Positions 774 to 16,966 of a stretch of DNA of 16,966 nucleotides are shown here, piece after piece. This stretch comes from a virus (Duplodnaviria; Heunggongvirae; Uroviricota; Caudoviricetes). The position numbers and the translations under genes are program-made. Below the pieces are notes generated by a model. It was not told the DNA's origin. It searched no databases and saw only the letters and a program-made list of their open reading frames with translations. The DNA lies in IMG/VR virus record IMGVR_UViG_2703718855_000004. One strand, given 5' to 3'. Numbering within the stretch: position 1 is the stretch's first letter; each line of letters starts with the position of its first letter.

Positions 774-1526
774 TCAGATTCCCTGGTGAGTAAGAATTTT
801 ACTTTCTGAACTGCTCTGAGAGTATTGACTTGGAGAAACACCAAAATAACGTCTAAATACATAAGTAAAGTATGAGACACTGGCATAACCACAGACCTTA
901 GCTACTTTACTAATAGGATAACAACGAGTGCTGAGTAAATATTCAGCCATTTGCATCCTCTCATCAAGTATGATCTTACTGAATGATACCCCCTCTTCTT
1001 TCAATTTCCTCTTTAGTAAACTTTCGCTGAGATATAATCTTGATGATATATCCTTAAGACGCCATGGTGCAGATAAATCCGTATGAATAATCGTTTTAAC
1101 TTTAGCCCCTGTGCTTTTCAAACATTCAAACAGAAATACTCCAAATTGTTTTTCAGAAGAAAATGCAGAGAGACATGTAAAAGCAATAGACTCATCAAAA
1201 ATTTCTATGTATTCAGCACAGTGATTAGCCCAACTAATTAATCCTTTAATTAAACTGAAGTCAGCAAAGTTTATTTTTAAATAAGATGGATATTCCCTAC
1301 AATCAGAAATATCCCTTAAGTTATTAGCTTTCAAATAGCGACTAATAAACTCAGCGCCAAAATCCGCCACTATCACTCTTTCAGGATATGTCAGGAAAAA
1401 ATCTCTAGAGCTAGAGTCGACAAGTACAGATGAACCTCTCTCCAGAAACACACTCTCTTTTCCGAAATAAACATCAAAGGACTCCAAAATCAATATAACT
1501 GAACATGTAGTTGCCATATCATCCAC
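774..1526 (-). CDS. AraC/XylS-family transcriptional regulator, YdeO/AppY/GadX-like
   Basis: 250-aa ORF. The C-terminus ...PWRLKDISSRLYLSESLLKRKLKEEGVSFSKIILDERMQMAEYLLSTRCYPISKVAKVCGYASVSYFTYVFRRYFGVSPSQY is the two-HTH AraC DNA-binding domain and aligns by eye with E. coli YdeO/AppY. The stop lies 2 nt from the IS2-like right end. Confidence 0.8.
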   Translation of the reverse strand: MDDMATTCSVILILESFDVYFGKESVFLERGSSVLVDSSSRDFFLTYPERVIVADFGAEFISRYLKANNLRDISDCREYPSYLKINFADFSLIKGLISWANHCAEYIEIFDESIAFTCLSAFSSEKQFGVFLFECLKSTGAKVKTIIHTDLSAPWRLKDISSRLYLSESLLKRKLKEEGVSFSKIILDERMQMAEYLLSTRCYPISKVAKVCGYASVSYFTYVFRRYFGVSPSQYSQSSSESKILTHQGI

Positions 1527-3021: not shown

Positions 3022-3603
3022 TTACCCTATAGGTGCTACTGGCCATTCAATATCCTGTGCAGTTGACGTATCAACACGGTTCAGCAATACCCGATACTTT
3101 TTCCAGGCTTCCAGCAACAAGGTTTCTTCCTCCGTTGCGATTTCCAGATCCACAGCATCCTGAAGCGGCGCTATATGCTCACTGGCTACCTGCATCAGGC
3201 TGTTTTTTGTTTCTTCCACCTCCCGGATCCGGAACAGTTTTTCTGCTTCCGTATCCTTCACCCAGGCTGTGCCGTTCCACTTCTGAAACTCCCCTTCCGG
3301 GGATAACCAGGTAACATTTTCCGGTAATGAGCCGAGTTCAGAAATAAATAACGCGTCCCCTGATGCCACGTCATAAACTGTTTTACCCCGATGGTCTTCA
3401 ACAAGATGCCACGATGACTCATCACTGTTGAAAACAGCCACGAAGCCAGCCGGAATATCTGGCGGTGCAATATCGGTACTGTTTGCTGGCAGACCTGTAT
3501 GAGGCGGAATATATGCATCACCTTCACCAATAAATTCATTAGTTCCGGCCAGCAGATTATAAATTTTTATGGTCCGTGGTTGTTCACTCATTCTGAATGC
3601 CAT
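3022..3603 (-). CDS. tfa: Tail fiber assembly protein Tfa (lambda-type)
   Basis: 193-aa [47 protein letters not shown]... is collinear over its full length with lambda Tfa as I recall it. Confidence 0.9.
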
Positions 3604-3848
3604 TAACCAACACGGGCAGACTTCACCACATTCACCTCGCGGATGTAGTCGCTGCCCATCGCATTCATGATGGCCCGCTGAAAGGGCAGTGTTTCCCAGC
3701 GCCCTTCCTGGTATGCGGATTCTTTCGGGAGATAGTAATTAGCATCCGCCCATTCAACGGCGGTCTGTGGCTCCGGCCTGAACAGTGAGCGAAGCCCGGC
3801 GCGGACAAAATGCCGCAGCCTGTTAACCTGACTGTTCGATATATTCAC
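3603..3848 (-). pseudogene. Terminase large subunit (gpA) N-terminal fragment, about 81 codons, stop overlapping the tfa start
   Basis: [81 protein letters not shown] matches the first ~81 residues of lambda gpA, then stops. The stop and the tfa ATG overlap (TAATG). The rest of A and all head and tail genes are missing. Confidence 0.85.
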
Positions 3849-4368
3849 TCAGCAACCCCGGTATCAGTTCATCCAGCGCGGCTGCTTTGTTCATGGCTTT
3901 GATGATATCCCGTTTCAGGAAATCAACATGTCGGTTTTCCAGTTCCGGAAAACGCCGCTGCACCGACAGGGGGATCCCGTCGAGAATACTGGCAATTTCA
4001 CCTGCGATCCGCGACAACACGAAAGTACAGAATGCGGTTTCCACCACTTCAGCGGAGTCTCTGGCATTCTTCAGTTCCTGTGCGTCGGCCTGCGCACGCG
4101 TAAGTCGATGGCGTTCGTACTCAATAGTCCCTGGCTGGAGATCTGCCTCGCTGGCCTGCCGCAGTTCTTCAACCTCCCGGCGCAGCTTTTCGTTCTCAAT
4201 TTCAGCATCCCTTTCGGCATACCATTTTATGACGGCGGCAGAGTCATAAAGCACCTCATTACCCTTGCCACCGCCTCGCAGAACGGGCATTCCCTGTTCC
4301 TGCCAGTTCTGAATGGTACGGATACTCGCACCGAAAATGTCAGCCAGCTGCTTTTTGTTGACTTCCAT
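3823..4368 (-). CDS. nohD: Terminase small subunit Nu1 (lambda-type)
   Basis: 181-aa ORF MEVNKKQLADIFGASIRTIQNWQEQGMPVLRGGGKGNEVLYDSAAVIKWYAERD... is full-length and collinear with lambda Nu1. Its 3' end overlaps the gpA fragment start as in lambda. The symbol is chosen by analogy with K-12 cryptic-prophage naming. Confidence 0.85.
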   Translation of the reverse strand: MEVNKKQLADIFGASIRTIQNWQEQGMPVLRGGGKGNEVLYDSAAVIKWYAERDAEIENEKLRREVEELRQASEADLQPGTIEYERHRLTRAQADAQELKNARDSAEVVETAFCTFVLSRIAGEIASILDGIPLSVQRRFPELENRHVDFLKRDIIKAMNKAAALDELIPGLLSEYIEQSG

Positions 4369-4600
4369 TGTTCATTCCACGGACAAAAACAGAGAAAGGA
4401 AACGACAGAGGCCAAAAAGCTCGCTTTCAGCACCTGTCGCTTCCTTTCTTTTCAGAGGGTATTTTAAATAAAAACATTAAGTTATGACGAAGAAGAACGG
4501 AAACGCCTTAAACCGGAAAATTTTCATAAATAGCGAAAACCCGCGAGGTCGCCGCCCCGTAACCTGTCGGATCGCCGGAAAGGACCCGCAAAATGATAAT
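4369..4600. other. cos site (cosB, cosN, cosQ side), lambda-type; 12-nt cohesive-end sequence at 4546..4557
   Basis: The reverse complement of 4369..4577 reads ...CGACAGGTTACG|GGGCGGCGACCTCGCGGGTTTTCGCTATTTATGAAAATTTTCCGGTTTAAGGCG...TTTGTCCGTGGAATGAACA, matching the joined lambda right end and left end upstream of Nu1. Confidence 0.75.
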
Positions 4601-4756
4601 AATTATCATCTACATGTCACAACGTGCATCTACGCCATCAAACCACGTCAAATAATCAATTATGACGCAGGTATCGTATTAATTGATCTGCATCAACTTA
4701 ACGTAAAAACAACTTCAGACAATACAAATCAGCGACACTGAATACGGGGCAACCTC

Positions 4757-4951
4757 ATGTCAACGAAGAACAGAACCCGCAGAACAACAACCCGCAACAT
4801 CCGCTTTCCTAACCAAATGATTGAACAAATTAACATCGCTCTTGAGCAAAAAGGGTCCGGGAATTTCTCAGCCTGGGTCATTGAAGCCTGCCGTCGGAGA
4901 CTAACGTCAGAAAAGAGAGCATATACATCAATTAAAAGTGATGAAGAATGA
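4757..4951 (+). CDS. ylcI: Small conserved prophage protein (YlcI-like, DUF3950); possible ribbon-helix-helix fold
   Basis: 64-aa ORF MSTKNRTRRTTTRNIRFPNQMIEQINIALEQKGSGNFSAWVIEACRRRL... with a beta-strand, helix, G-x-S-x-N turn, helix pattern. Confidence 0.6.
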   Translation: MSTKNRTRRTTTRNIRFPNQMIEQINIALEQKGSGNFSAWVIEACRRRLTSEKRAYTSIKSDEE

Positions 4952-5115
4952 ACATCCCGCGTTCTTCCCTCCGAACAGGACGATATTGTAAATTCACTTA
5001 ATTACGAGGGCATTGCAGTAATTGAGTTGCAGTTTTACCACTTTCCTGACAGTGACAGACTGCGTGTTGGCTCTGTCACAGGCTAAATAGTTTGAATGAT
5101 TAGCAGTTATGGTGA

Positions 5116-5322
5116 TCAGTCAACCACCAGGGAATAATCCTTCATATTATTATCGTGCTTCACCAACGCTGCCTCAATTGCTCTGAATGCTTCCAGAGAC
5201 ACCTTATGTTCTATACATGCAATTACAACATCAGGGTAACTCATAGAAATGGTGCTATTAAGCATATTTTTTACACGAATCAGATCCACGGAGGGATCAT
5301 CAGCAGATTGTTCTTTATTCAT
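5116..5322 (-). CDS. ybcW: Small hypothetical prophage protein (YbcW-like)
   Basis: 68-aa [71 protein letters not shown], at the position expected in the DLP12-type gene order. Confidence 0.6.
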
Positions 5323-5607
5323 TTTGTCGCTCCATGCGCTTGCTCTTCATCTAGCGGTTAAAATATTACTTCAAATCTTTCTGTATGAAGATTTGAGCAC
5401 GTTGGCCTTACATACATCTGTCGGTTGTATTTCCCTCCAGAATGCCAGCAGGACCGCACTTTGTTACGCAACCAATACTATTAAGTGAAAACATTCCTAA
5501 TATTTGACATAAATCATCAACAAAACACAAAGAGGTCAGACCAGATTGAAACGATAAAAACGATAATGCAAACTACGCGCCCTCGTATCACATGGAAGGT
5601 TTTACCA

Positions 5608-6018
5608 ATGGCTCAGGTTGCCATTTTTAAAGAAATATTCGATCAAGTGCGAAAAGATTTAAACTGTGAATTGTTTTATTCTGAACTAAAACGTCACAAC
5701 GTCTCACATTATATTTACTATCTAGCCACAGATAATATTCACATCGTGTTAGAAAACGATAACACCGTGTTAATAAAAGGACTTAAAAAGGTTGTAAATG
5801 TTAAATTCTCAAGAAACACGCATCTTATAGAAACGTCCTATGATAGGTTGAAATCAAGAGAAATCACATTTCAGCAATACAGGGAAAATCTTGCTAAAGC
5901 AGGAGTTTTCCGATGGGTTACAAATATCCATGAACATAAAAGATATTACTATACCTTTGATAATTCATTACTATTTACTGAGAGCATTCAGAACACTACA
6001 CAAATCTTTCCACGCTAA
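5608..6018 (+). CDS. ybcV: Hypothetical prophage protein (YbcV-like, DUF1398)
   Basis: ORF track gives 5485..6018. I chose the internal start [47 protein letters not shown]... (136 aa), the length I recall for YbcV. The start is uncertain; 5485 and 5566 are alternatives. Confidence 0.65.
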
Positions 6019-6308
6019 ATCATAACGTCCGGTTTCTTCCGTGTCAGCACCGGGGCGTTGGCATAATGTAATACGTGTACGCGCTAAACCCTGTGTGCAT
6101 CGTTTTTAATTATTCCCGGACACTCCCGCAGAGAAGTTCCCCGTCAGGGCTGTGGACATAGTTAATCCGGGAATACAATGACGATTCATCGCACCTGACA
6201 TACATTAATAAATATTAACAATATGAAATTTCAACTCATTGTTTAGGGTTTGTTTAATTTTCTACACATACGATTCTGCGAACTTCAAAAAGCATCGGGA
6301 ATAACACC

Positions 6309-6602
6309 ATGAAAAAAATGCTACTCGCTACTGCGCTGGCCCTGCTTATTACAGGATGTGCTCAACAGACGTTTACTGTTCAAAACAAACCGGCAGCAGT
6401 AGCACCAAAGGAAACCATCACCCATCATTTCTTCGTTTCTGGAATTGGGCAGAAGAAAACTGTCGATGCAGCCAAAATTTGTGGCGGCGCAGAAAATGTT
6501 GTTAAAACAGAAACCCAGCAAACATTCGTAAATGGATTGCTCGGTTTTATTACTTTAGGCATTTATACTCCGCTGGAAGCGCGTGTGTATTGCTCACAAT
6601 AA
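6309..6602 (+). CDS. borD: Bor outer-membrane lipoprotein (lambda bor-type, serum-resistance moron)
   Basis: 97-aa ORF MKKMLLATALALLITGCAQQTFTVQNKPAAVAPKETITHHFFVSGIGQKK... with lipobox ITGC. It matches lambda Bor as recalled and lies opposite to the lysis genes as in lambda. Confidence 0.9.
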   Translation: MKKMLLATALALLITGCAQQTFTVQNKPAAVAPKETITHHFFVSGIGQKKTVDAAKICGGAENVVKTETQQTFVNGLLGFITLGIYTPLEARVYCSQ

Positions 6603-6610
6603 TTGCATGA

Positions 6611-6632
6611 GTTGCCCATCGATATGGGCAAC
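6611..6632. terminator. Palindromic hairpin between convergent bor and Rz
   Basis: GTTGCCCAT-cgat-ATGGGCAAC, a perfect 9-bp stem, lies between the bor stop (6602) and the Rz stop (6634). There is no strong U-tract on either side. Confidence 0.4.
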
Positions 6633-6633
6633 T

Positions 6634-7095
6634 CTATCTGCACTGCTCATTAATATACTTCTGGGTTCCTTCCAGTTGTTTTTGCATAGTGATCAGCCTC
6701 TCTCTGAGGGTGAAATAATCCCGTTCAGCGGTGTCTGCCAGTCGGGGGGAGGCTGCATTATCCACGCCGGAGGCGGTGGTGGCTTCACGCACTGACTGAC
6801 AGACTGCTTTGATGTGCAACCGACGACGACCTGCGGCAACATCATCACGCAGAGCATCATTTTCAGCTTTCGCATCAGCTAACTCCTTCGTGTATTTTGC
6901 ATCGAGCGCAGCAACATCACGCTGACGCATCTGCATGTCAGTAATTGCCGCGTTCGCCAGCTTCAGTTCTCTGGCATTTTTGTCGCGCTGGGCTTTGTAG
7001 GTAATGGCGTTATCACGGTAATGATTAACAGCCCATGACAGGTAGACGATGATGCAGATAACCAGAGCGGAGATAATCGCGGTTACTCTGTTCAT
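6634..7095 (-). CDS. rzpD: i-spanin Rz (inner-membrane spanin subunit)
   Basis: 153-aa product [55 protein letters not shown]... has an N-terminal TM segment and coiled coil. The start was chosen at MNRV, 4 codons inside the ORF-track start. It overlaps the endolysin 3' end. Confidence 0.85.
6693..6875 (-). CDS. rzoD: o-spanin Rz1 lipoprotein, embedded in the +1 frame of Rz
   Basis: 60-aa [63 protein letters not shown], with lipobox VVGC and a proline-rich body, lies entirely inside Rz in another frame. Confidence 0.8.
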
Positions 7096-7589
7096 TGCTG
7101 ACCCCACAAACAGATTTCACGCTCAATCTCACGACGAGTCATGAGACCTTTCCATTGCTTACCGCCAGCATATGTCCAGCGACGTAGCTGATCACATGCG
7201 CCTTTGATATCGCCCTGGTTTATTTTGCGAAGAAGCGTCGATGTTCTGAAATTGCCAGCACCCACGTTGTAAACGAATGAGTAAAGAGCGCCGCGCGTTG
7301 TTTCCGGTATATCGACTTTGATGTACGGGTTAATTTGTCTGGCGACAGTGGCAAGGTCTTTATTCAAGAGTGCTTTGCATTCTGCTTTGGTATACGTTTT
7401 ACCGAGCATGATGTCTTTTCCGGTGTGTCCGTGACATACAGTCCATACGCCAACGATATCTTTGTATGGTACGTAGCTGACACCTTCCAGACCATCGTTA
7501 CCACTTGGGCCAGTAATTAACACTGATGCTATAGCAATTGCTCCGCCACCAATAGCAGCAGCAACGGCTTTTCGTAATGATGGAGGCAT
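7092..7589 (-). CDS. rrrD: Endolysin (lysozyme R) with N-terminal signal-anchor-release-like hydrophobic segment, phage 21-type
   Basis: 165-aa [78 protein letters not shown]... has a Gly/Ala-rich N-terminal hydrophobic stretch and a lysozyme domain. Its start overlaps the holin stop. Confidence 0.9.
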
Positions 7590-7804
7590 TATTCACCTCT
7601 CGCAGCCTTGCGCTTATCTTCTTTAATCTTGAAATAAAGGTTTGTCAGGTACGTCAGCAGGCCAAATACCAGGCTACCCAGCACACCTATTGCTGCCCAC
7701 TGTGAGGGCGTGACTTTATCGAGCAGCTGTAAAAACCAGTAACCGGCACTACCTGCTGAGGTGCCATAGGCGACACCCGTTGTTAACTTATCCATGGATT
7801 TCAT
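7589..7804 (-). CDS. essD: Holin, phage 21 S-type (pinholin class), with dual-start motif M-K-S-M
   Basis: 71-aa product [71 protein letters not shown] with two TM segments. The ORF track extends upstream to 7849; I chose the MKSM start. Confidence 0.85.
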
Positions 7805-7930
7805 AACCCCACCTCGCAGACAAAGCGGGTGTAAATTGAGGGAATACAACGTATCGCAAAAAAGCAGAAACGTAACAGACTCGGAGTCAGTGAATAACTC
7901 AGGTATTGGGTTATCAGCTAATATCGAGAC

Positions 7931-7965
7931 TCAAAAAATGGAAAAACCCGCTCGACGGCGGGTTT
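7931..7965 (-). terminator. Rho-independent terminator upstream of the holin; candidate tR' of the late operon
   Basis: The minus strand reads AAACCCGCCGTCGAGCGGGTTT followed by TTCCATTTTTTG (stem ACCCGC/GCGGGT). It lies about 130 nt upstream of the holin start, where lambdoid phages place tR' between pR'/qut and S. Confidence 0.45.
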
Positions 7966-8390
7966 AAGCTGTGTGACGAAGTAACCACTCTTAACAGCAT
8001 AACCAATTTTTTACGTACGTAAACCACTAAATGATATTTGCGAGAATGCTACCGAGTATTGAAAACACCACTACAAATACATAAGCAAATCTCAACAAAT
8101 AACCAACAAATAATTTCCAGCGTTATTTTAGCTGGTTTAAATTGAATCTTCAAATTATAGAGCACTTATAAATAACAGCCATTAATATAAATTGGCTAAT
8201 AGATTTATTTTTATTCAGCCAAGAGCCATGAATAGGATTCGATAGAAAAAGTTCAGATAAAAATAGAGATCTACTTCACAAATCAAATGAGAAACCAAAA
8301 CTTACATCTTGAAATAATCACATTGATTAGATGAATATTTATCGCGCAGTGACATCATTTTTTAATAATAGTTCAAAAAAAGGGCTCACG

Positions 8391-9473
8391 ATGAAAAAAT
8401 TAACAGTGGCAATTTCTGCTGTAGCTGCATCAGTACTGATGGCGATGTCTGCTCAGGCAGCTGAAATTTATAATAAAGACAGTAACAAGCTGGATCTGTA
8501 CGGGAAAGTTAATGCTAAGCACTACTTCTCCTCTAATGATGCAGATGATGGTGATACTACTTATGCCCGTCTTGGCTTCAAAGGTGAAACCCAAATCAAC
8601 GATCAACTGACTGGTTTCGGTCAGTGGGAATATGAATTCAAAGGCAACCGCGCTGAATCTCAAGGTTCCTCCAAAGATAAAACCCGTCTTGCCTTCGCTG
8701 GCCTGAAATTCGGTGACTACGGCTCCATCGATTATGGCCGTAACTACGGTGTAGCATACGATATTGGTGCATGGACCGACGTTCTGCCAGAATTCGGTGG
8801 CGATACCTGGACCCAAACAGATGTATTCATGACTGGTCGCACCACAGGTGTTGCAACTTATCGTAACAATGACTTCTTTGGTCTGGTTGATGGTCTGAAC
8901 TTTGCTGCTCAGTATCAGGGTAAAAATGACCGCACTGACGTAACTGAAGCTAATGGTGATGGTTTCGGTTTCTCCACTACTTATGAGTATGAAGGATTCG
9001 GTGTAGGTGCAACCTATGCTAAATCTGACCGCACTAATAATCAGGTTATCTACGGTAACAACAGCCTGAATGCATCTGGTCAAAATGCTGAAGTATGGGC
9101 AGCTGGTCTGAAATATGATGCGAACAACATCTATCTGGCTACCACCTATTCTGAAACCCAGAACATGACTGTTTTTGGTAATAACCATATTGCCAACAAA
9201 GCACAAAACTTCGAAGTAGTTGCACAATATCAGTTCGACTTCGGTCTGCGTCCGTCCGTTGCTTACCTGCAATCTAAAGGAAAAGACTTGGGTGCGTGGG
9301 GTGATCAGGACCTGGTTGAATATATTGATGTAGGTGCAACCTATTACTTCAACAAAAATATGTCCACTTTTGTTGATTACAAAATCAACCTGATTGATAA
9401 GAGCGATTTCACGAAAGCATCTGGCGTTGCTACCGATGATATCGTTGCTGTAGGTATGGTTTACCAGTTCTAA
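8391..9473 (+). CDS. nmpC: General porin of the OmpC/OmpF/PhoE family, prophage-encoded (NmpC/Lc-type), apparently intact
   Basis: 360-aa product [23 protein letters not shown]|[23 protein letters not shown]... has a signal peptide, the porin N-terminal motif, and a C-terminal ...GMVYQF with terminal Phe typical of OM beta-barrels. The start was chosen at 8391, not the ORF-track 8331. Confidence 0.9.
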
Positions 9474-10267: not shown

Positions 10268-10630
10268 TCATTCATTCCCCATTTCGGTGATGGTCAGTTC
10301 CAGCCTCCCACCTTTGGTAACAGGCATCTTCACAACGCGGTAATCAACGACCTGAGCATCATCCAGCCAGAAACCTGCTTTGGTGAGTGCGTCAAAAGCG
10401 GCTTTTTGCAGATTATCCAGGTCACGGCGACGGCGATCCGGCATGTGGCACTCAATACGGATTTTCACTGGCATAGCCAGGCCGATATCCAGCATTGCGT
10501 TTTTAATGATTCGGGTGACGTTATCGCGGTATGCCTGCCCTTCTGCGCTGATGTGTGTGCGCCCGCGATTATGGCGGTAATAGCGATTATTGCTCGGAGG
10601 CCAGGGTAATGTGATGCTGTAGGTATTCAC
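10268..10630 (-). CDS. rusA: Holliday-junction resolvase RusA
   Basis: 120-aa [123 protein letters not shown] matches RusA. Confidence 0.92.
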
Positions 10631-10917
10631 GCCTTAATAACCCCCTCTTTCAGCCAGATAACCTGTGTTCTCGCCATACCTTCCAGCGCGCATTCTTTTG
10701 CATATGCAGCATCGACAAAATGTGTGCGGCGGTCGATTTCGTCGTGGCAGGCAGAACATGCAATGGTGGCAATCAGGTCTGGCGGTTTCGTACCGGTGCC
10801 GCACAATCCAGTCAGCCGGATATGTGCCAGTACAGACGTTTCAGGGTTGCCATTACATACGCCAGGGATTCTTACCTGGCATTCCCGACCACGCGCTGCT
10901 TTTCTCAAATCAGCCAT
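10627..10917 (-). CDS. ybcO: Nin-region protein YbcO (DUF1364, Cys-rich putative nuclease)
   Basis: 96-aa product [64 protein letters not shown]... (start 13 codons inside the ORF-track start). It overlaps rusA by 4 nt. Confidence 0.85.
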
Positions 10918-11072
10918 GACTCCTCCTTGCTGCCAGTCGCAACCATTTTTTATCAACCAGGCTGGCGGTATATCCGAGCAGTGTTGGTATTTCGGAAGGC
11001 TTCAGCTCCGGTTTACGCTTACGACGATTTGGTACTCTGTAGATGTGTCCGTTCATGACACGAATAAGCGGT
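10902..11072 (-). CDS. ninE: NinE protein
   Basis: My translation: [56 protein letters not shown] (56 aa). Its 3' end overlaps the ybcO start by 16 nt. Confidence 0.75.
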
Positions 11073-11079
11073 GTAGCCA

Positions 11080-11535
11080 TTACGCCTCCTGTTTGTCGCG
11101 GAGCTGCTGGAACTCGCAGCTCTGCGGAATAGTCAGGTGGCAGCCAATATTCACCGCCCAGGCTTCAACCTTACACAGGAAGATATACATCTCTCCGGTA
11201 TCAAGATCGGAGGTATGGCGTAACGACTGGATAGTAGTGATTTCGCCGGTTACGACATCAACCAGGTCCTTGGTTTCATAACCGAGGTATGTGTGTTTGA
11301 GAGCATCTTTTACCCATGCTGCGGTAGCGAACGATTTCCCCCTGCTGATGAGGTATTCACTGATTTCGCTGTACCACATGTGGCTGAGTGCATTCTGGGA
11401 AAGACTGCGTTTCTCACGCCACGGTTTAAGCACCATGCGAAAGCATTTTCCGTCCTCCAGATAAGGCTGGATCTGCTGGCCGATAGCGGTGAAGTTACCG
11501 CGATGCAGTTTGATGCCATCTTGTGGTAGGTTCAC
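11080..11535 (-). CDS. ybcN: NinB-family recombination protein (YbcN-like)
   Basis: 151-aa ORF containing ...[20 protein letters not shown]..., comparable to the R-x-RSLDQN motif of lambda NinB. It heads the ninE-ybcO-rusA cluster. Confidence 0.8.
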
Positions 11536-11725
11536 GCTTCACCTCCGCAGAGGTCAGACGCTGGATGCAAAAAATCGCAGGTGCATTTCTGCATCTGTGA
11601 AGGGAGAAGAGAGTTTGGATTGTATGTGCGCATAAACGTCCCCGTTTAGCGCAGAAGTCACCGGAGTTGTTCAAGCTCCGATGACTTTATTATTACGAAT
11701 TGATTTTACAAAATCAAAAGGTATG

Positions 11726-12178
11726 TTAGTGACGCGGGTCTGTTATTATGCGAGAAGGGTTTCCGTATAAAACAAGGACCTTACTTCCTTGAGTAAATAA
11801 CGGATCTTTGCCTTGAACAATGGTCATTAAATTCCCATTCTCAGTTTCGACAACATATTCCATGCCTGTTTGTTTTGTTGCTGAAGATTCGATTGCTGCC
11901 CCGGCAATACCACCAATGACTGCACCACCAACGGCACCAACGATATTAGAACGAACTCCCCCACCAAGCGCAGAACCAGCGGTTGCCCCCACGGCAGCCC
12001 CAGCAGTCCCGCCTAACGCGGAAGTCCCACTGATATCAACCCCCCTAGCACTAATAACTGTACCAGCGATAGTTCGATTAACCATGCCCACAGAGCCAAC
12101 AGAATAACTATTTGGCGATATATTTTGTGCGCATCCAACCAACACTAAGAGTGGAGCAATTACGAATAATCGCTTCAT
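11726..12178 (-). CDS. Outer-membrane lipoprotein with glycine-zipper domain, SlyB/Pcp-like
   Basis: 150 aa. Signal peptide with lipobox LVGC, then a long Gly/Ala zipper (GGTAGAAVGATAGSALGGGVRSNIVGAVGGAVIGGIAGAAI), then a C-terminal segment GMEYVVETENGNLMTIVQGKDPLFTQGSKVLVLYGNPSRI that aligns by eye with the E. coli SlyB C-terminus. The start overlaps the upstream gene's stop (ATGA). Confidence 0.8.
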   Translation of the reverse strand: MKRLFVIAPLLVLVGCAQNISPNSYSVGSVGMVNRTIAGTVISARGVDISGTSALGGTAGAAVGATAGSALGGGVRSNIVGAVGGAVIGGIAGAAIESSATKQTGMEYVVETENGNLMTIVQGKDPLFTQGSKVLVLYGNPSRIITDPRH

Positions 12179-12735
12179 TTAGCTACCCTAACAGGAAACA
12201 TTGGACGAGAAAGATCAACACTTTCTAATGCTTGCAAGAACTGCGTTATGTTGTTTTGCACCGCGCGATTAACAGATTCGCGTGCTCGAACAATACCGTA
12301 GAATGCGTAACTGGCTGGAACAGTACCGGTAGACTCAATATCCTGCGTATATATAATATCACCATTCGCACGGTTGATTATTTCATACCTTGCAATTGCT
12401 TTAGTTGTCATTGAAACACCAAAAGCAGGAACGTCAAGAGCCAACACTTTAACATTTAAGCTAACCGTATTTGGTGAACTATCACGAAAAATAGTCATTC
12501 GGTCGAGTGCTTCCTGCAAAGATTCACGCCAAATTGGAGTTATAGCCTCCATACCAGCAGTGATATCCCCTTTCTGCTCATCTGGACGAGCAAGTGATAC
12601 CGTTAATGACTTAATTTCAGCATCTATTTTTTTCTGGCTAACTCCCACGTTAGGTGTTGAAAAATTCAATGGTGGCACACTAGCGCAACCTGTTAAAGAA
12701 CCAATAATCATGGCTAATAATATTATCTTCTTCAT
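12175..12735 (-). CDS. Uncharacterized lipoprotein, first gene of a two-gene lipoprotein operon
   Basis: 186 aa. MKKIILLAMIIGSLTGC|ASVPP... has lipobox LTGC and a Shine-Dalgarno-like AAGG 8 nt upstream. I recognise no family. It is translationally coupled to the SlyB-like gene. Confidence 0.75.
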   Translation of the reverse strand: MKKIILLAMIIGSLTGCASVPPLNFSTPNVGVSQKKIDAEIKSLTVSLARPDEQKGDITAGMEAITPIWRESLQEALDRMTIFRDSSPNTVSLNVKVLALDVPAFGVSMTTKAIARYEIINRANGDIIYTQDIESTGTVPASYAFYGIVRARESVNRAVQNNITQFLQALESVDLSRPMFPVRVAK

Positions 12736-12991
12736 AAATTTACCTTATTGTTATAACCAAAGGAATTATAAAGTAAAAAAGTTCACTATCACTAGCCATT
12801 AACGACATCAATTTCAGAGAAACATGGTACTCATTTCCACAAATTTGACACAAGTCATTTTCACCTACATATTCCATCATACTTGATGCATATGTTATTG
12901 AAGCCTCTATCCTATCCGTTCATAATAGCAATAGTTACCCGGGTGATAGTACCTCTATGATTACTCGTCTTTCTGATTGATTGGATTAAAT

Positions 12992-13183
12992 ATGCGCGCC
13001 AAAATTTATCAACTTTCGTTATGGATATTTATTTCGTTTCTAGCGATCTATGCCTTTATTATCTATAAAGGTTCTTATATTGGAGTAGCATTGCATCAAA
13101 TTGCTTGGATCATCATTATTGCCTCTGGCTTGATTGCTAGGCTAACTAAACCAAAGCAAAAACCAATTTCGTCCAATAATTAG
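12992..13183 (+). CDS. Small hydrophobic ORF with two predicted TM helices (hypothetical)
   Basis: 63 aa from the ATG at 12992: MRAKIYQLSLWIFISFLAIYAFIIYKGSYIGVALHQIAWIIIIASGLIARLTKPKQKPISSNN. The ORF track starts at 12977 on a non-ATG codon. There is no convincing RBS, and the surrounding DNA is AT-rich and divergent from the lipoprotein operon. Confidence 0.3.
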   Translation: MRAKIYQLSLWIFISFLAIYAFIIYKGSYIGVALHQIAWIIIIASGLIARLTKPKQKPISSNN

Positions 13184-13340
13184 ACATGTATTAAAAAAAT
13201 GATATTTTTATGTACATAGTCTATTGAAAATTGCCGCGATAAAATGCCAACACCCGCTTCATCGCGGCACTCTGGCGACACTCCTTGAAAATCAGATTCG
13301 TGCTCACCTTTCCTTCCCGTTCTTCCCTGGTAGCGAACCG

Positions 13341-13789
13341 GTAATCATCCGATCTGCGTTACCGAGTGGATGGATGAATGCCGCCGCGAACCATTCAAAA
13401 CCCGCGAAGGCAGAGAAATTACGGGGCCGTGGCAGTCGCATCCCAAACGGATGTTACGGCATAAAGCCATGATTCAGTGTGCCCGTCTGGCCTTCGGATT
13501 TGCTGGTATCTATGACAAGGATGAAGCCGAGCGCATTGTCGAAAATACCGCATACACCGCAGAACGTCAGCCGGAACGCGACATTACTCCGGTTAACGAT
13601 GAAACCATGCAGGAGATTAACACTCTGCTGATTGCCCTGGACAAAACATGGGATGACGACTTATTGCCGCTCTGTTCCCAGATATTTCGCCGCGACATTC
13701 GCGCATCGTCAGAACTGACACAGGCCGAAGCAGTGAAAGCTCTTGGATTCCTGAAACAGAAAGCCACTGAGCAGAAGGTGGCAGCATGA
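13341..13789 (+). pseudogene. bet: bet (Red-beta recombinase), 5'-truncated; only the C-terminal ~149 codons remain
   Basis: From about 13341 the frame reads (G)NHPICVTEWMDECRREPFKTREGREITGPWQSHPKRMLRHKAMIQCARLAFGFAGIYDKDEAERIVENTAYTAERQ...KVAA, matching the C-terminal part of lambda Bet. There is an in-frame stop at 13331..13333 and unrelated sequence upstream. Confidence 0.85.
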
Positions 13790-14466
13790 CACCGGACATT
13801 ATCCTGCAGCGTACCGGGATCGACGTGAGAGCTGTCGAACAGGGGGATGATGCATGGCACAAATTACGGCTCGGCGTCATCACCGCTTCAGAAGTTCACA
13901 ACGTGATAGCCAAGCCCCGCTCAGGAAAGAAGTGGCCTGACATGAAAATGTCCTACTTCCACACCCTGCTGGCTGAGGTTTGCACCGGTGTGGCTCCGGA
14001 AGTTAATGCTAAGGCGCTGGCATGGGGAAAACAGTACGAGAACGACGCCAGAACCCTGTTTGAATTCACTTCCGGCGTGAATGTTACTGAATCCCCGATC
14101 ATCTATCGCGACGAAAGTATGCGCACCGCCTGCTCTCCCGATGGTTTATGCAGTGACGGCAATGGCCTTGAGCTGAAATGCCCGTTTACCTCCCGGGATT
14201 TCATGAAGTTCCGGCTCGGTGGTTTCGAGGCCATAAAGTCGGCTTACATGGCCCAGGTGCAGTACAGCATGTGGGTGACACGAAAAGATGCCTGGTACTT
14301 TGCCAACTATGACCCGCGTATGAAGCGTGAAGGACTGCATTATGTCGTGGTTGAGCGGGATGAAAAGTACATGGCGAGTTTTGACGAGATGGTGCCGGTG
14401 TTCATCGAAAAAATGGACGAGGCACTGGCTGAAATTGGTTTTGTATTTGGGGAGCAATGGCGATGA
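13786..14466 (+). CDS. exo: Lambda exonuclease (Red-alpha), full length
   Basis: 226-aa [68 protein letters not shown]...GEQWR is collinear with lambda Exo over its full length, with only a few substitutions from the recalled sequence. The start overlaps the bet stop (ATGA). Confidence 0.95.
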
Positions 14467-15548
14467 CGCATCCTCACGATAATATCCGGGTAGGCGCAAT
14501 CACTTTCGTCTACTCCGTTAACCTTTATATAAGAAACAATGGATATTACTGCTACAGGGACCCAAGGACGGGTAAAGAGTTTGGATTAGGCCGAGACAGG
14601 CGAATCGCAATCACTGAAGCTATACAGGCCAACATTGAGTTATTTTCAGGACACAAACACAAGCCTCTGACAGCGAGAATCAACAGTGATAATTCCGTTA
14701 CGTTACATTCATGGCTTGATCGCTACGAAAAAATCCTGGCCAGCAGAGGAATCAAGCAGAAGACACTCATAAATTACATGAGCAAAATTAAAGCAATAAG
14801 GAGGGGTCTGCCTGATGCTCCACTTGAAGACATCACCACAAAAGAAATTGCGGCAATGCTCAATGGATACATAGACGAGGGAAAGGCGGCATCAGCCAAG
14901 TTAATCAGATCAACACTGAGCGATGCATTCCGAGAGGCTATGGCTGAAGGCCATATAACAACAAACCCGGTCGCAGCCACTCGCGCTGCAAAATCAGAGG
15001 TAAGGAGATCAAGACTTACGGCTGACGAATACCTGAAAATTTATCAAGCAGCAGAATCATCACCATGTTGGCTTAGACTTGCAATGGAACTGGCTGTTGT
15101 TACCGGGCAGCGAGTTGGTGATTTATGCGAAATGAAGTGGTCTGATATCGTAGATGGATATCTTTATGTCGAGCAAAGCAAAACAGGCGTAAAAATTGCC
15201 ATCCCAACAACATTGCATGTTGATGCTCTCGGGATATCAATGAAGGAAACACTTGATAAATGCAAAAAGATTCTTGGCGGAGAAACCATAATTGCATCTA
15301 CTCGTCGTGAACCGCTTTCATCCGGCACAGTATCAAGGTATTTTATGCGCGCACGAAAAGCATCAGGTCTCTCCTTCGAAGGGGATCCGCCAACCTTTCA
15401 CGAGTTGCGCAGTTTGTCTGCAAGACTCTATGAGAAGCAGATAAGCGATAAATTTGCTCAACATCTTCTCGGGCATAAGTCGGACACCATGGCATCACAG
15501 TATCGTGATGACAGAGGCAGGGAGTGGGACAAAATTGAAATCAAATAA
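14457..15548 (+). CDS. int: Lambda-type integrase (tyrosine recombinase) with replaced N-terminus: 22 codons matching the start of lambda orf60a are fused in frame to Int from about residue 16
   Basis: 363-aa [25 protein letters not shown]|[27 protein letters not shown]... After the junction (nt ~14520) it is near-identical to lambda Int and retains the catalytic residues (R in VTGQRVGD, K in SKTGVK, H-x-x-R in [10 protein letters not shown] and Y in [11 protein letters not shown]). The start overlaps the exo stop. Confidence 0.88.
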
Positions 15549-15640
15549 TGATTTTATTTTGACTGATAGTGACCTGTTCGTTGCAACAAATTGATAAGCA
15601 ATGCTTTTTTATAATGCCAACTTAGTATAAAAAAGCAGGC
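15549..15640. other. attL prophage-host junction (B-O-P'); core O at 15622..15636, P' arm on the int side
   Basis: The reverse complement reads GCCTGCTTTTTTATACTAAGTTGGCATTATAAAAAAGCATTGCTTATCAATTTGTTGCAACGAACAGGTCACTATCAGTCAAAATAAAATCATTATTTGA: the lambda 15-bp core GCTTTTTTATACTAA with the P' arm on one side and the bacterial B half-site (GCCTGC) on the ybhC side. Confidence 0.88.
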
Positions 15641-15682
15641 TTCAACGGATTCATTTTTCTATTTCATAGCCCGGAGCAACCT

Positions 15683-16966
15683 GTGAACACATTTTCAGTT
15701 TCCCGTCTGGCGCTGGCATTGGCTTTTGGCGTGACGCTGACCGCCTGTAGCTCAACCCCGCCCGATCAACGTCCTTCTGATCAAACCGCGCCTGGTACCT
15801 CTTCTCGCCCGATTCTGTCGGCAAAAGAAGCGCAGAATTTCGATGCTCAACACTATTTTGCATCCCTGACACCAGGTGCTGCAGCGTGGAATCCTTCCCC
15901 GATTACCCTGCCTGCGCAACCTGACTTTGTTGTCGGCCCGGCGGGCACTCAAGGTGTAACGCATACCACGATTCAGGCGGCGGTAGATGCGGCAATTATC
16001 AAGCGTACCAACAAGCGCCAGTATATTGCCGTGATGCCTGGTGAGTATCAGGGAACGGTATATGTCCCTGCCGCTCCGGGTGGAATTACTCTGTACGGTA
16101 CAGGTGAAAAACCGATTGATGTGAAGATTGGGCTTTCCCTTGATGGTGGCATGAGCCCTGCCGACTGGCGTCACGACGTCAACCCGCGCGGCAAATATAT
16201 GCCAGGTAAACCAGCGTGGTATATGTACGATAGCTGCCAGAGCAAACGCAGCGACAGTATCGGTGTTCTCTGCTCTGCGGTCTTCTGGTCACAAAACAAT
16301 GGCCTGCAACTGCAAAATCTGACCATCGAAAACACGCTGGGCGATAGCGTAGATGCAGGTAACCATCCGGCGGTGGCACTGCGTACTGATGGTGACCAGG
16401 TACAGATTAACAACGTTAACATTCTCGGTCGTCAGAACACCTTCTTTGTCACCAACAGCGGTGTGCAGAACCGTCTGGAAACAAATCGTCAGCCGCGTAC
16501 GCTGGTGACCAACAGCTACATTGAAGGGGATGTGGATATCGTTTCTGGTCGCGGCGCAGTGGTGTTCGATAACACCGAATTCCGCGTGGTGAACTCACGT
16601 ACTCAGCAAGAAGCGTATGTGTTTGCACCGGCTACGCTGTCCAACATTTACTACGGTTTCCTCGCCGTAAACAGCCGTTTCAATGCTTTCGGTGATGGTG
16701 TGGCGCAACTGGGCCGCTCGCTGGATGTTGATGCCAATACCAACGGTCAGGTGGTGATCCGTGATAGCGCCATCAACGAAGGTTTTAACACGGCTAAACC
16801 GTGGGCCGATGCGGTGATCTCTAATCGTCCGTTTGCGGGTAATACCGGCAGCGTAGATGATAACGACGAAATACAGCGCAATCTGAATGACACTAACTAC
16901 AACCGCATGTGGGAATACAATAACCGCGGCGTGGGTAGTAAAGTGGTTGCAGAGGCGAAGAAGTAA
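15683..16966 (+). CDS. ybhC: YbhC, outer-membrane lipoprotein of the pectinesterase-like family (acyl-CoA thioesterase); host gene flanking the lambda attachment site
   Basis: 427-aa ORF from a GTG start. MNTFSVSRLALALAFGVTLTACSSTPPDQ... has lipobox LTAC and right-handed beta-helix-type repeats. It lies immediately outside the attL B arm. Confidence 0.88.
   Translation: MNTFSVSRLALALAFGVTLTACSSTPPDQRPSDQTAPGTSSRPILSAKEAQNFDAQHYFASLTPGAAAWNPSPITLPAQPDFVVGPAGTQGVTHTTIQAAVDAAIIKRTNKRQYIAVMPGEYQGTVYVPAAPGGITLYGTGEKPIDVKIGLSLDGGMSPADWRHDVNPRGKYMPGKPAWYMYDSCQSKRSDSIGVLCSAVFWSQNNGLQLQNLTIENTLGDSVDAGNHPAVALRTDGDQVQINNVNILGRQNTFFVTNSGVQNRLETNRQPRTLVTNSYIEGDVDIVSGRGAVVFDNTEFRVVNSRTQQEAYVFAPATLSNIYYGFLAVNSRFNAFGDGVAQLGRSLDVDANTNGQVVIRDSAINEGFNTAKPWADAVISNRPFAGNTGSVDDNDEIQRNLNDTNYNRMWEYNNRGVGSKVVAEAKK

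Follow-up and report, generated by a model that had tools for sequence, protein, structure and literature searches.

A reading frame directly downstream of the exonuclease gene exo, in a 16,966-nucleotide stretch of lambda-like DNA (the whole stretch is called the window below), encodes a lambda-type integrase that does not begin with the residues of Int. This locus raises the question of whether the frame specifies a natural integrase variant, a chimeric integrase that is still made and used, or the scar of a deletion, and what became of the prophage around it.

The window was identical to the chromosome of Escherichia coli VG48B2 (NZ_CP128584.1; the window position equals the position in our locus L001 minus 3701). 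In this chromosome, a 15.6-kb lambdoid remnant is inserted between ybhB and ybhC, that is, at the lambda attachment site. According to the PGAP annotation, the order along the plus strand at the right-hand end of the remnant is a ren' fragment (encoded on the minus strand), 'bet, exo, the fusion ORF, attL, and ybhC. The ren' fragment (13221..13343, minus strand), annotated by PGAP as a 'protein ren' pseudogene, forms the left side of an older ren'/'bet junction. On the other side, 'bet (13343..13789, plus strand) is a 5'-truncated Red-beta (RecT-family) pseudogene, which PGAP describes as a 'recombinase RecT' pseudogene without its N-terminus; in the BLAST alignment, the homology to lambda begins within bet, at lambda 32476. 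The exo gene (13786..14466, plus strand) is intact and encodes the lambda exonuclease of 226 amino acid residues (WP_000186850.1, the same protein as in strain MS 124-1). The host gene ybhC (15683..16966, plus strand) flanks the attachment site on the gal side.

The older ren'/'bet deletion took pL, N, cI, cro, cII, O, P, cIII, kil, gam, and the 5' part (about half) of bet. A separate deletion took the entire morphogenesis region, and a terminase fragment now adjoins the tail-fibre-assembly gene. Among the annotated genes of the remnant (PGAP gene content), we found no repressor, replication, head, or tail gene. What is kept is a DLP12-like region of Q, nin, and lysis genes, together with bor, a porin gene, the gene for an AraC-type regulator, and IS fragments. 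The remnant was already defective before the 3,679-bp deletion described below. With its lost modules, fixed locus, vertical inheritance, and lineage-specific erosion, the element is a cryptic ('grounded') prophage. The initial annotation had pictured an otherwise inducible prophage locked by one lesion; this picture has to be replaced by that of a remnant with earlier module losses and, since immunity, replication, and virion genes are all missing, 'induction' is meaningless for the element.

The fusion ORF, orf60a'-'int (14463..15548, plus strand), encodes 361 amino acid residues when read from the start codon that is used both in lambda orf60a and in the PGAP call; the mechanically predicted ORF, which begins at 14457, encodes 363. 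The ATG at 14463 overlaps the stop codon of exo as ATGA (14463-14466), and a Shine-Dalgarno-like motif, GGGGAG (14449..14454, plus strand), is located 8 nt upstream of it. The foreign N-terminus consists of codons 1-19 of orf60a (DUF1317; 14463..14519, plus strand), and its sequence is identical to residues 1-19 of lambda orf60a. The rest of the frame (14520..15548, plus strand) comprises codons 15-356 and the stop codon of int, in the form of the natural allele WP_000533650.1.

In the BLAST alignment with lambda, window 13337-14520 corresponded to lambda 32476-31294 (bet and exo together with the beginning of orf60a) with 97.1% identity, and window 14519-15636 corresponded to lambda 28841-27724 (int codon 15 to the att core) with 98.3% identity. 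The blocks are collinear and have 2 nt (TA) in common. The deletion junction is thus at 14519..14520, with this TA as a microhomology of 2 bp: the sequences ...TCC GTT A/CA AAG of orf60a and ...CCC CCT A/AC CTT of int were joined into ...TCC GTT AAC CTT... The 40-mer spanning the junction is CTTTCGTCTACTCCGTTAACCTTTATATAAGAAACAATGG. Residues 1-14 of Int (MGRRRSHERRDLPP) were lost, and Int resumes at codon 15 (Asn15). The alignment confirmed the junction that the initial annotation had placed near 14517-14522 (GTTA/ACC). The '22 foreign codons in frame' that it described are indeed in frame, but their number is 19 from 14463 (21 from the mechanical start at 14457), and the resumption of int, given there as codon ~16, had to be shifted by one codon.

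MS 124-1 still has the state before the deletion, and its flanks, 4,226 nt on the left side of the junction and 2,448 nt on the right side, are 100% identical to those in the window. Window 10295-14520 matched positions 3756-7981 of the MS 124-1 locus (L011), and window 14519-16966 matched L011 11659-14106, with no mismatch or gap. Because the flanks are 100% identical, the difference between the two strains is a single clean deletion of 3,679 bp in a background that is otherwise unchanged. In MS 124-1, the order of the region is 'bet, exo, orf60a, the DUF1382 gene (orf63), an orf61-like gene, a TraR/DksA-like gene, an ea22 pseudogene, a gene for a hypothetical protein of 204 residues, two pseudogenes, a DUF2513 gene, a lambda p35-like gene of 55 residues, the excisionase gene (WP_001303849.1), an intact integrase gene of 356 residues (WP_000533650.1), and ybhC. 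The deletion spans orf60a codon 20 to int codon 14, and took the rest of orf60a, about ten genes or pseudogenes of the Ea region, xis, pI, and int codons 1-14.

The initial annotation had proposed that the deletion be defined by alignment with lambda. Such an alignment gives 2,452 bp in lambda coordinates for the missing segment; its position was correct, but the true ancestor, represented by MS 124-1, gives the larger size of 3,679 bp. Lambda itself was ruled out as the ancestor both by this difference in size and by the flanks, whose identity is 97-98% with lambda and 100% with MS 124-1. FORC_081 and NCTC9041 were also ruled out; they have the ren'/'bet junction and lack exo through orf61, and they are therefore sister lineages.

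VG48B2 was the only one of 5,426 complete E. coli genomes that contained the fusion junction. The identical 361-residue protein in the same context was also present on at least 24 independent contigs (34 index blocks; NCBI drafts and Logan SRA assemblies), and three of the fusion contigs agreed with the window at 99.99-100% identity over lengths of 8.7-12.5 kb. An assembly artefact was ruled out by the recurrence of the junction in independent assemblies and in SRA-derived contigs.

The ren'/'bet junction is more widely shared: 18 complete E. coli genomes have it in common with 100% identity. Carriers of this junction that also retain exo and the full orf60a are MS 124-1, EC416, PEC1009, NCTC9040, NCTC9104, and 1332KP. 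In FORC_081 and NCTC9041, 1,262 bp, from exo to orf61, are gone. In RM10410, about 0.44 kb and about 2.2 kb have disappeared from the same 5 kb, and IS insertions are found within the same region in ATCC 8739 and MS 124-1. As independent deletions affect the same 5 kb in sister strains, the deletion that produced the fusion is one step of an ongoing erosion and not the event that inactivated the prophage.

Excisive recombination requires Xis [PMC4880445; PMC6379469]. A tblastn search with lambda Xis in the 36 kb around the element gave nothing significant (the best E-value was 0.057, over 20 residues), and no excisionase-like family was detected with Pfam or PHROGs among the hypothetical ORFs nearby. 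For the rest of the chromosome, a single-copy bait unique to VG48B2 was joined to the xis region of a sister strain, and the matching places in the record were counted at megablast sensitivity. The bait with the 55-residue gene, xis, and int codons 1-14 matched two places on the VG48B2 chromosome. The bait with xis alone matched one place, and thus no lambda-type xis is present elsewhere in the chromosome record at megablast sensitivity. The additional match of the longer bait is therefore to the region of the 55-residue lambda p35-like gene, of which the chromosome has a second copy, and not to xis. The absence of xis and of the Ea-region genes had been correctly recognized in the initial annotation: both lie inside the segment deleted relative to MS 124-1, tblastn detected no Xis in the 36 kb, and no xis was found elsewhere on the chromosome at megablast sensitivity.

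The attachment sites have survived. The attL site (15549..15645) consists of a P' arm identical to that of lambda, including the block of arm-type sites, a 15-bp core (15622-15636) that is identical to the lambda core at 15 of 15 positions, and a bacterial B arm. Just to the left of the window, attR (L001 about 3440-3700) has 14 of the 15 core positions and conserved P1 and P2 sites; in lambda, X1, X2, F, and H2 (the sites for Xis, Fis, and IHF) are located in a stretch that is diverged here. As attL is identical to that of lambda and attR is present, the remnant might still be a substrate for Int and Xis that a related phage supplies in trans. Thus, the description of the prophage as 'locked in place' applies to self-excision, but it does not extend to Int and Xis supplied from outside.

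We consider these observations to be best explained, with a probability of roughly 0.88, by one recent illegitimate deletion of 3,679 bp at a 2-bp microhomology in an already defective lambda-like remnant; the fusion ORF is the scar of this event and an incidental by-product, and the remnant cannot excise itself. By chance, the deletion left the two reading frames in phase. The fusion protein, if made at all, would come only from read-through, translationally coupled to exo. In the absence of Xis, recombination between attL and attR could not be directed, and the remnant would stay fixed in the chromosome unless both Int and Xis were supplied in trans. The fusion ORF would be on the way to becoming a pseudogene.

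An alternative, close to the suggestion of the initial annotation, is that the chimeric Int is still produced by coupling to exo, that it is an active integrase, and that the prophage is locked solely through the missing Xis. We regard this as unlikely, although several features of the frame agree with it. The frame is open, and it has the Shine-Dalgarno-like motif and the ATGA overlap with the exo stop codon. The catalytic and core-binding domains are unchanged. Over Int residues 15-356, the fusion is 98.5% identical to lambda Int, with 5 substitutions in 342 residues (I155M, H164P, A245T, I248V, and E264K), none of which is catalytic; these substitutions belong to the resident natural allele, WP_000533650.1, a common one among E. 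coli prophages, to which the fusion is 100% identical over these residues. The catalytic residues R212, K235, H308, R311, and H333 and the nucleophile Y342 are unchanged within the Phage_integrase domain (PF00589; 138.5 bits in the Pfam search against a cut-off of 27.1). The core-binding domain is complete, with Pfam scores equal to those of lambda Int (Phage_int_SAM_1, PF02899, 38.2 bits; Phage_int_M, PF22022, 37.8 bits). The initial annotation was therefore right in describing the catalytic domain as intact, as all differences from lambda Int are at non-catalytic positions.

It was equally right that the N-terminal end of the arm-binding domain has been replaced. With residues 1-14 gone, the Pfam match to Arm-DNA-bind_1 (PF09003) is incomplete, covering profile positions 15-74 of 74 with 85.5 bits, where lambda Int scores 112.9. 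The new N-terminus in turn matches DUF1317 (PF07026) with 37.6 bits, where lambda orf60a scores 137. The solved structures of Int align with the fusion only from Int residue 14 on. The Pfam match and a low-confidence AF2 model suggest that the beta-sheet and the helix of the arm-binding domain are kept, which again agrees with an active protein. In this single-sequence model of fusion residues 1-96 (pLDDT 54.6), residues 1-18 form an unstructured coil; the strands at 20-23, 29-32, and 39-43 and the helix at 46-61, predicted at the same low confidence, correspond to Int 15-18, 24-27, and 34-38 and to Int 41-56, respectively. The position of the modelled helix agrees with that of the Int 41-56 helix mentioned in PMC9791396.

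What has been replaced is the basic tail through which Int touches arm DNA; this speaks against an active integrase. According to one report, Int's N-terminal domain (residues 1-64) places a beta-sheet of three strands in the major groove of arm DNA and a flexible tail in its minor groove [PMC2831311]. The lost tail is basic, with five arginines in 14 residues; the replacement peptide is hydrophobic and nearly uncharged. A study by Fadeev et al. of 2009 reportedly bears, to go by its title, on the role of this N-terminal tail. The fusion would fold like Int but would bind arm-type sites poorly, because the basic minor-groove tail has been exchanged for a hydrophobic, uncharged peptide. In another report, whether the arm-binding domain activates or inhibits the catalytic domain is decided by the binding of arm DNA [PMC9791396]. 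As long as the arm-binding domain has no arm DNA bound, it inhibits catalysis, and the fusion should therefore be a poor recombinase. Weakened arm binding should lower recombination rather than free it.

The expression of the fusion is also doubtful, as both native promoters have been deleted. In lambda, int and xis are driven from pL, with antitermination by N, and from pI, with cII. The sequence of a cII site, TTGCGTGTAATTGC (TTGC-N6-TTGC), is located just upstream of the xis ATG, inside the segment lost in the 3,679-bp deletion; this site marks the cII-dependent promoter pI. In addition, pL, N, and cII were already absent through the ren'/'bet deletion. Because pL and pI are both gone, the production of the fusion depends on accidental read-through. 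A consensus promoter scan of 12700-15750 found 6 sites, against 5.5 expected from shuffled sequence, and none of them was above chance. One of these sites, TTGACA-17-CATATT (12845-12873; a 10/12 match), lies ahead of a small unannotated hydrophobic ORF on the plus strand, and no terminator-like site was found on the plus strand between it and the fusion. A low level of read-through expression is thus conceivable, which is the last point in favour of an active chimeric Int; the promoter-like sites are, as stated, at chance level. Of the initial annotation's statement on this point, the coupling to the exo stop codon (ATGA) was borne out, and the view that the protein 'may still be made' is reduced to a dependence on accidental read-through. 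Finally, an element without repressor, replication, or virion genes is far beyond being 'locked'.

It is also very improbable that the fusion has been kept for a benefit to the host, for example because a tail-less subunit poisons Int tetramers or occupies core sites and thereby interferes with the integration or excision of incoming lambda-type phages. Two reports indicate that Int acts as a tetramer in which the arm-binding domains regulate catalysis [PMC9791396; PMC4880445], a property that would suit such interference, and the ORF is intact in all carriers. However, the carriers are near-identical and form a tight clone with essentially no divergence; the intactness of the ORF thus reflects youth rather than selection and carries no weight on the latter. 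Moreover, the ORF has no dedicated promoter, and sister lineages lose other parts of the region at random. A more specific form of this idea, namely that read-through from a small upstream plus-strand moron yields a dominant-negative or decoy Int that lowers lysogenisation by, or disturbs excision of, incoming lambda-type phages with the same attachment site, and that the benefit to the host favours retention, appears just as far-fetched.

That the N-terminus is a natural Int variant, or that DUF1317-Int is a natural architecture, is hardly credible even though Pfam detects the two domains within a single protein and PGAP annotates a normal CDS, since the 19 residues are the start of orf60a placed exactly where orf60a follows exo, only profile positions 1-19 of 60 of DUF1317 are present, the sequence before the deletion exists in MS 124-1 with 100% identical flanks, and the architecture is confined to one clone (1 of the 5,426 complete genomes); the two lambda blocks, the identity to orf60a, and the ancestral sequence of MS 124-1 thus bear out the deletion fusion of the initial annotation.

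The fusion, as the scar of a deletion, can be compared with its two parents. It shares the catalytic and core-binding parts and the beta-sheet and helix with lambda Int (a heterobivalent tyrosine recombinase; PDB 1Z1B, 1Z1G, 5J0N, 1KJK, and 2WCC), and the P' arm and the core that adjoin it are identical to those of lambda. Unlike lambda Int, it has 19 unrelated residues of orf60a in place of residues 1-14, and it is accompanied by neither xis nor pI nor pL. What it has in common with lambda orf60a (DUF1317, PF07026) is how it begins, namely the start codon, codons 1-19, and the coupling to the stop codon of exo; only these 19 of 60 residues are left.

Prophages that become immobilised through lesions in int, xis, or att and are then eroded have been well described, under the term 'grounding' [PMC6379469]. 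The VG48B2 fusion is a case of ordinary prophage grounding, and represents no new mechanism or system. The remnant resembles the cryptic lambdoid prophages DLP12, Rac, Qin, and e14 [PMC6379469] in being vertically inherited, in having lesions in the recombination module, and in its erosion by deletions and IS elements; like them, it keeps a lysis, nin, and Q region, here of the DLP12-like type, together with morons (bor, the porin gene, and the gene for the AraC-type regulator). Unlike these four prophages, it is located at the lambda attachment site and has a lambda-type int. As the ancestral state survives in sister strains, the grounding lesion of VG48B2 could be reconstructed to the base pair.

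The biological weight of this finding is small, as it adds one further example of prophages that become fixed and decay. The ancestral form and its several independently deleted, otherwise identical derivatives, which occur in many E. coli strains, nevertheless constitute a natural series, resolved to the base pair, in which the rate and mechanism of prophage erosion can be studied; the types of erosion in the series are deletions at short microhomologies and IS insertions. In RefSeq, the 361-residue protein is entered as WP_052318180.1 under the name 'DUF1317 family protein', and PGAP treats it as an ordinary CDS. Behind this name lies a crippled integrase, and programs that call prophages or mobile elements by their integrase annotation could be misled.

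The remnant has been damaged in different ways, and independently, in other strains that carry it, when the copy in MS 124-1, which retains the pre-deletion state of the fusion region, is taken as the reference. The copies in FORC_081 and NCTC9041 have lost 1,262 bp from exo to orf61, and that in RM10410 lacks two segments, one of about 0.44 kb and the other of about 2.2 kb, whose junctions show overlaps of 9-12 nt. Insertion sequences account for other lesions: IS1 elements are inserted in the remnant of ATCC 8739, and ISEc52 is inserted in the nin region of MS 124-1. Intact xis and int are retained in all five of these strains (FORC_081, NCTC9041, RM10410, ATCC 8739, and MS 124-1).

An older deletion, by which the entire immunity and replication region was lost, is marked by the junction at position 13343 of the window, where ren' (minus strand) is joined to bet, which resumes at lambda position 32476. 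This junction is common to 18 complete E. coli genomes with 100% identity. Between the nin region and ren' lie two conserved phage genes (11726-12735, minus strand), whose products of 150 and 186 amino acid residues match phrog_13877 and phrog_12521, respectively; the former also gave weak glycine-zipper hits.

Upstream of 'bet, we found an unannotated AT-rich ORF of 63-68 amino acid residues on the plus strand (12977-13183), in which an ATG occurs at about 12992. The deduced product is a very hydrophobic, two-helix-like peptide, MRAKIYQLSLWIFISFLAIYAFIIYKGSYIGVALHQIAWIIIIASGLIARLTKPKQKPISSNN, and scans against Pfam and PHROGs gave no match to it. The ORF is preceded by a promoter-like sequence, TTGACA-17-CATATT (12845-12873). 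The ORF may be a moron, and its transcript may run on through 'bet, exo, and the orf60a'-'int fusion. The 361-residue fusion protein itself (14463-15548; WP_052318180.1) is named 'DUF1317 family protein' by RefSeq/PGAP, despite the fact that 342 of its 361 residues are derived from the integrase.

In the left part of the remnant, a fragment of the terminase large-subunit gene (3603-3848) directly adjoins a tail-fibre-assembly gene; therefore, the head and tail region has been deleted in its entirety. Left of the fragment are an AraC-family regulator gene (774-1517, minus strand), IS fragments (70-732), and about 1.5 kb of sequence without annotation. Just left of position 1, outside the window, attR and the sib/tI hairpin region occupy positions 3440-3700 of the VG48B2 locus. 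Within attR, 14 of the 15 core positions match, and both P1 and P2 are conserved; between the core and P2, the P arm has clearly diverged from the lambda sequence.

The remnant also carries a porin gene (8391-9473, plus strand), annotated as 'ompC' by PGAP and flanked by the lysis cassette and a Q-like antiterminator gene, which is the position of nmpC in DLP12. Finally, the region of the lambda p35-like 55-residue gene is probably present a second time on the VG48B2 chromosome, outside the remnant locus, because the place counts differ between queries with and without that segment.
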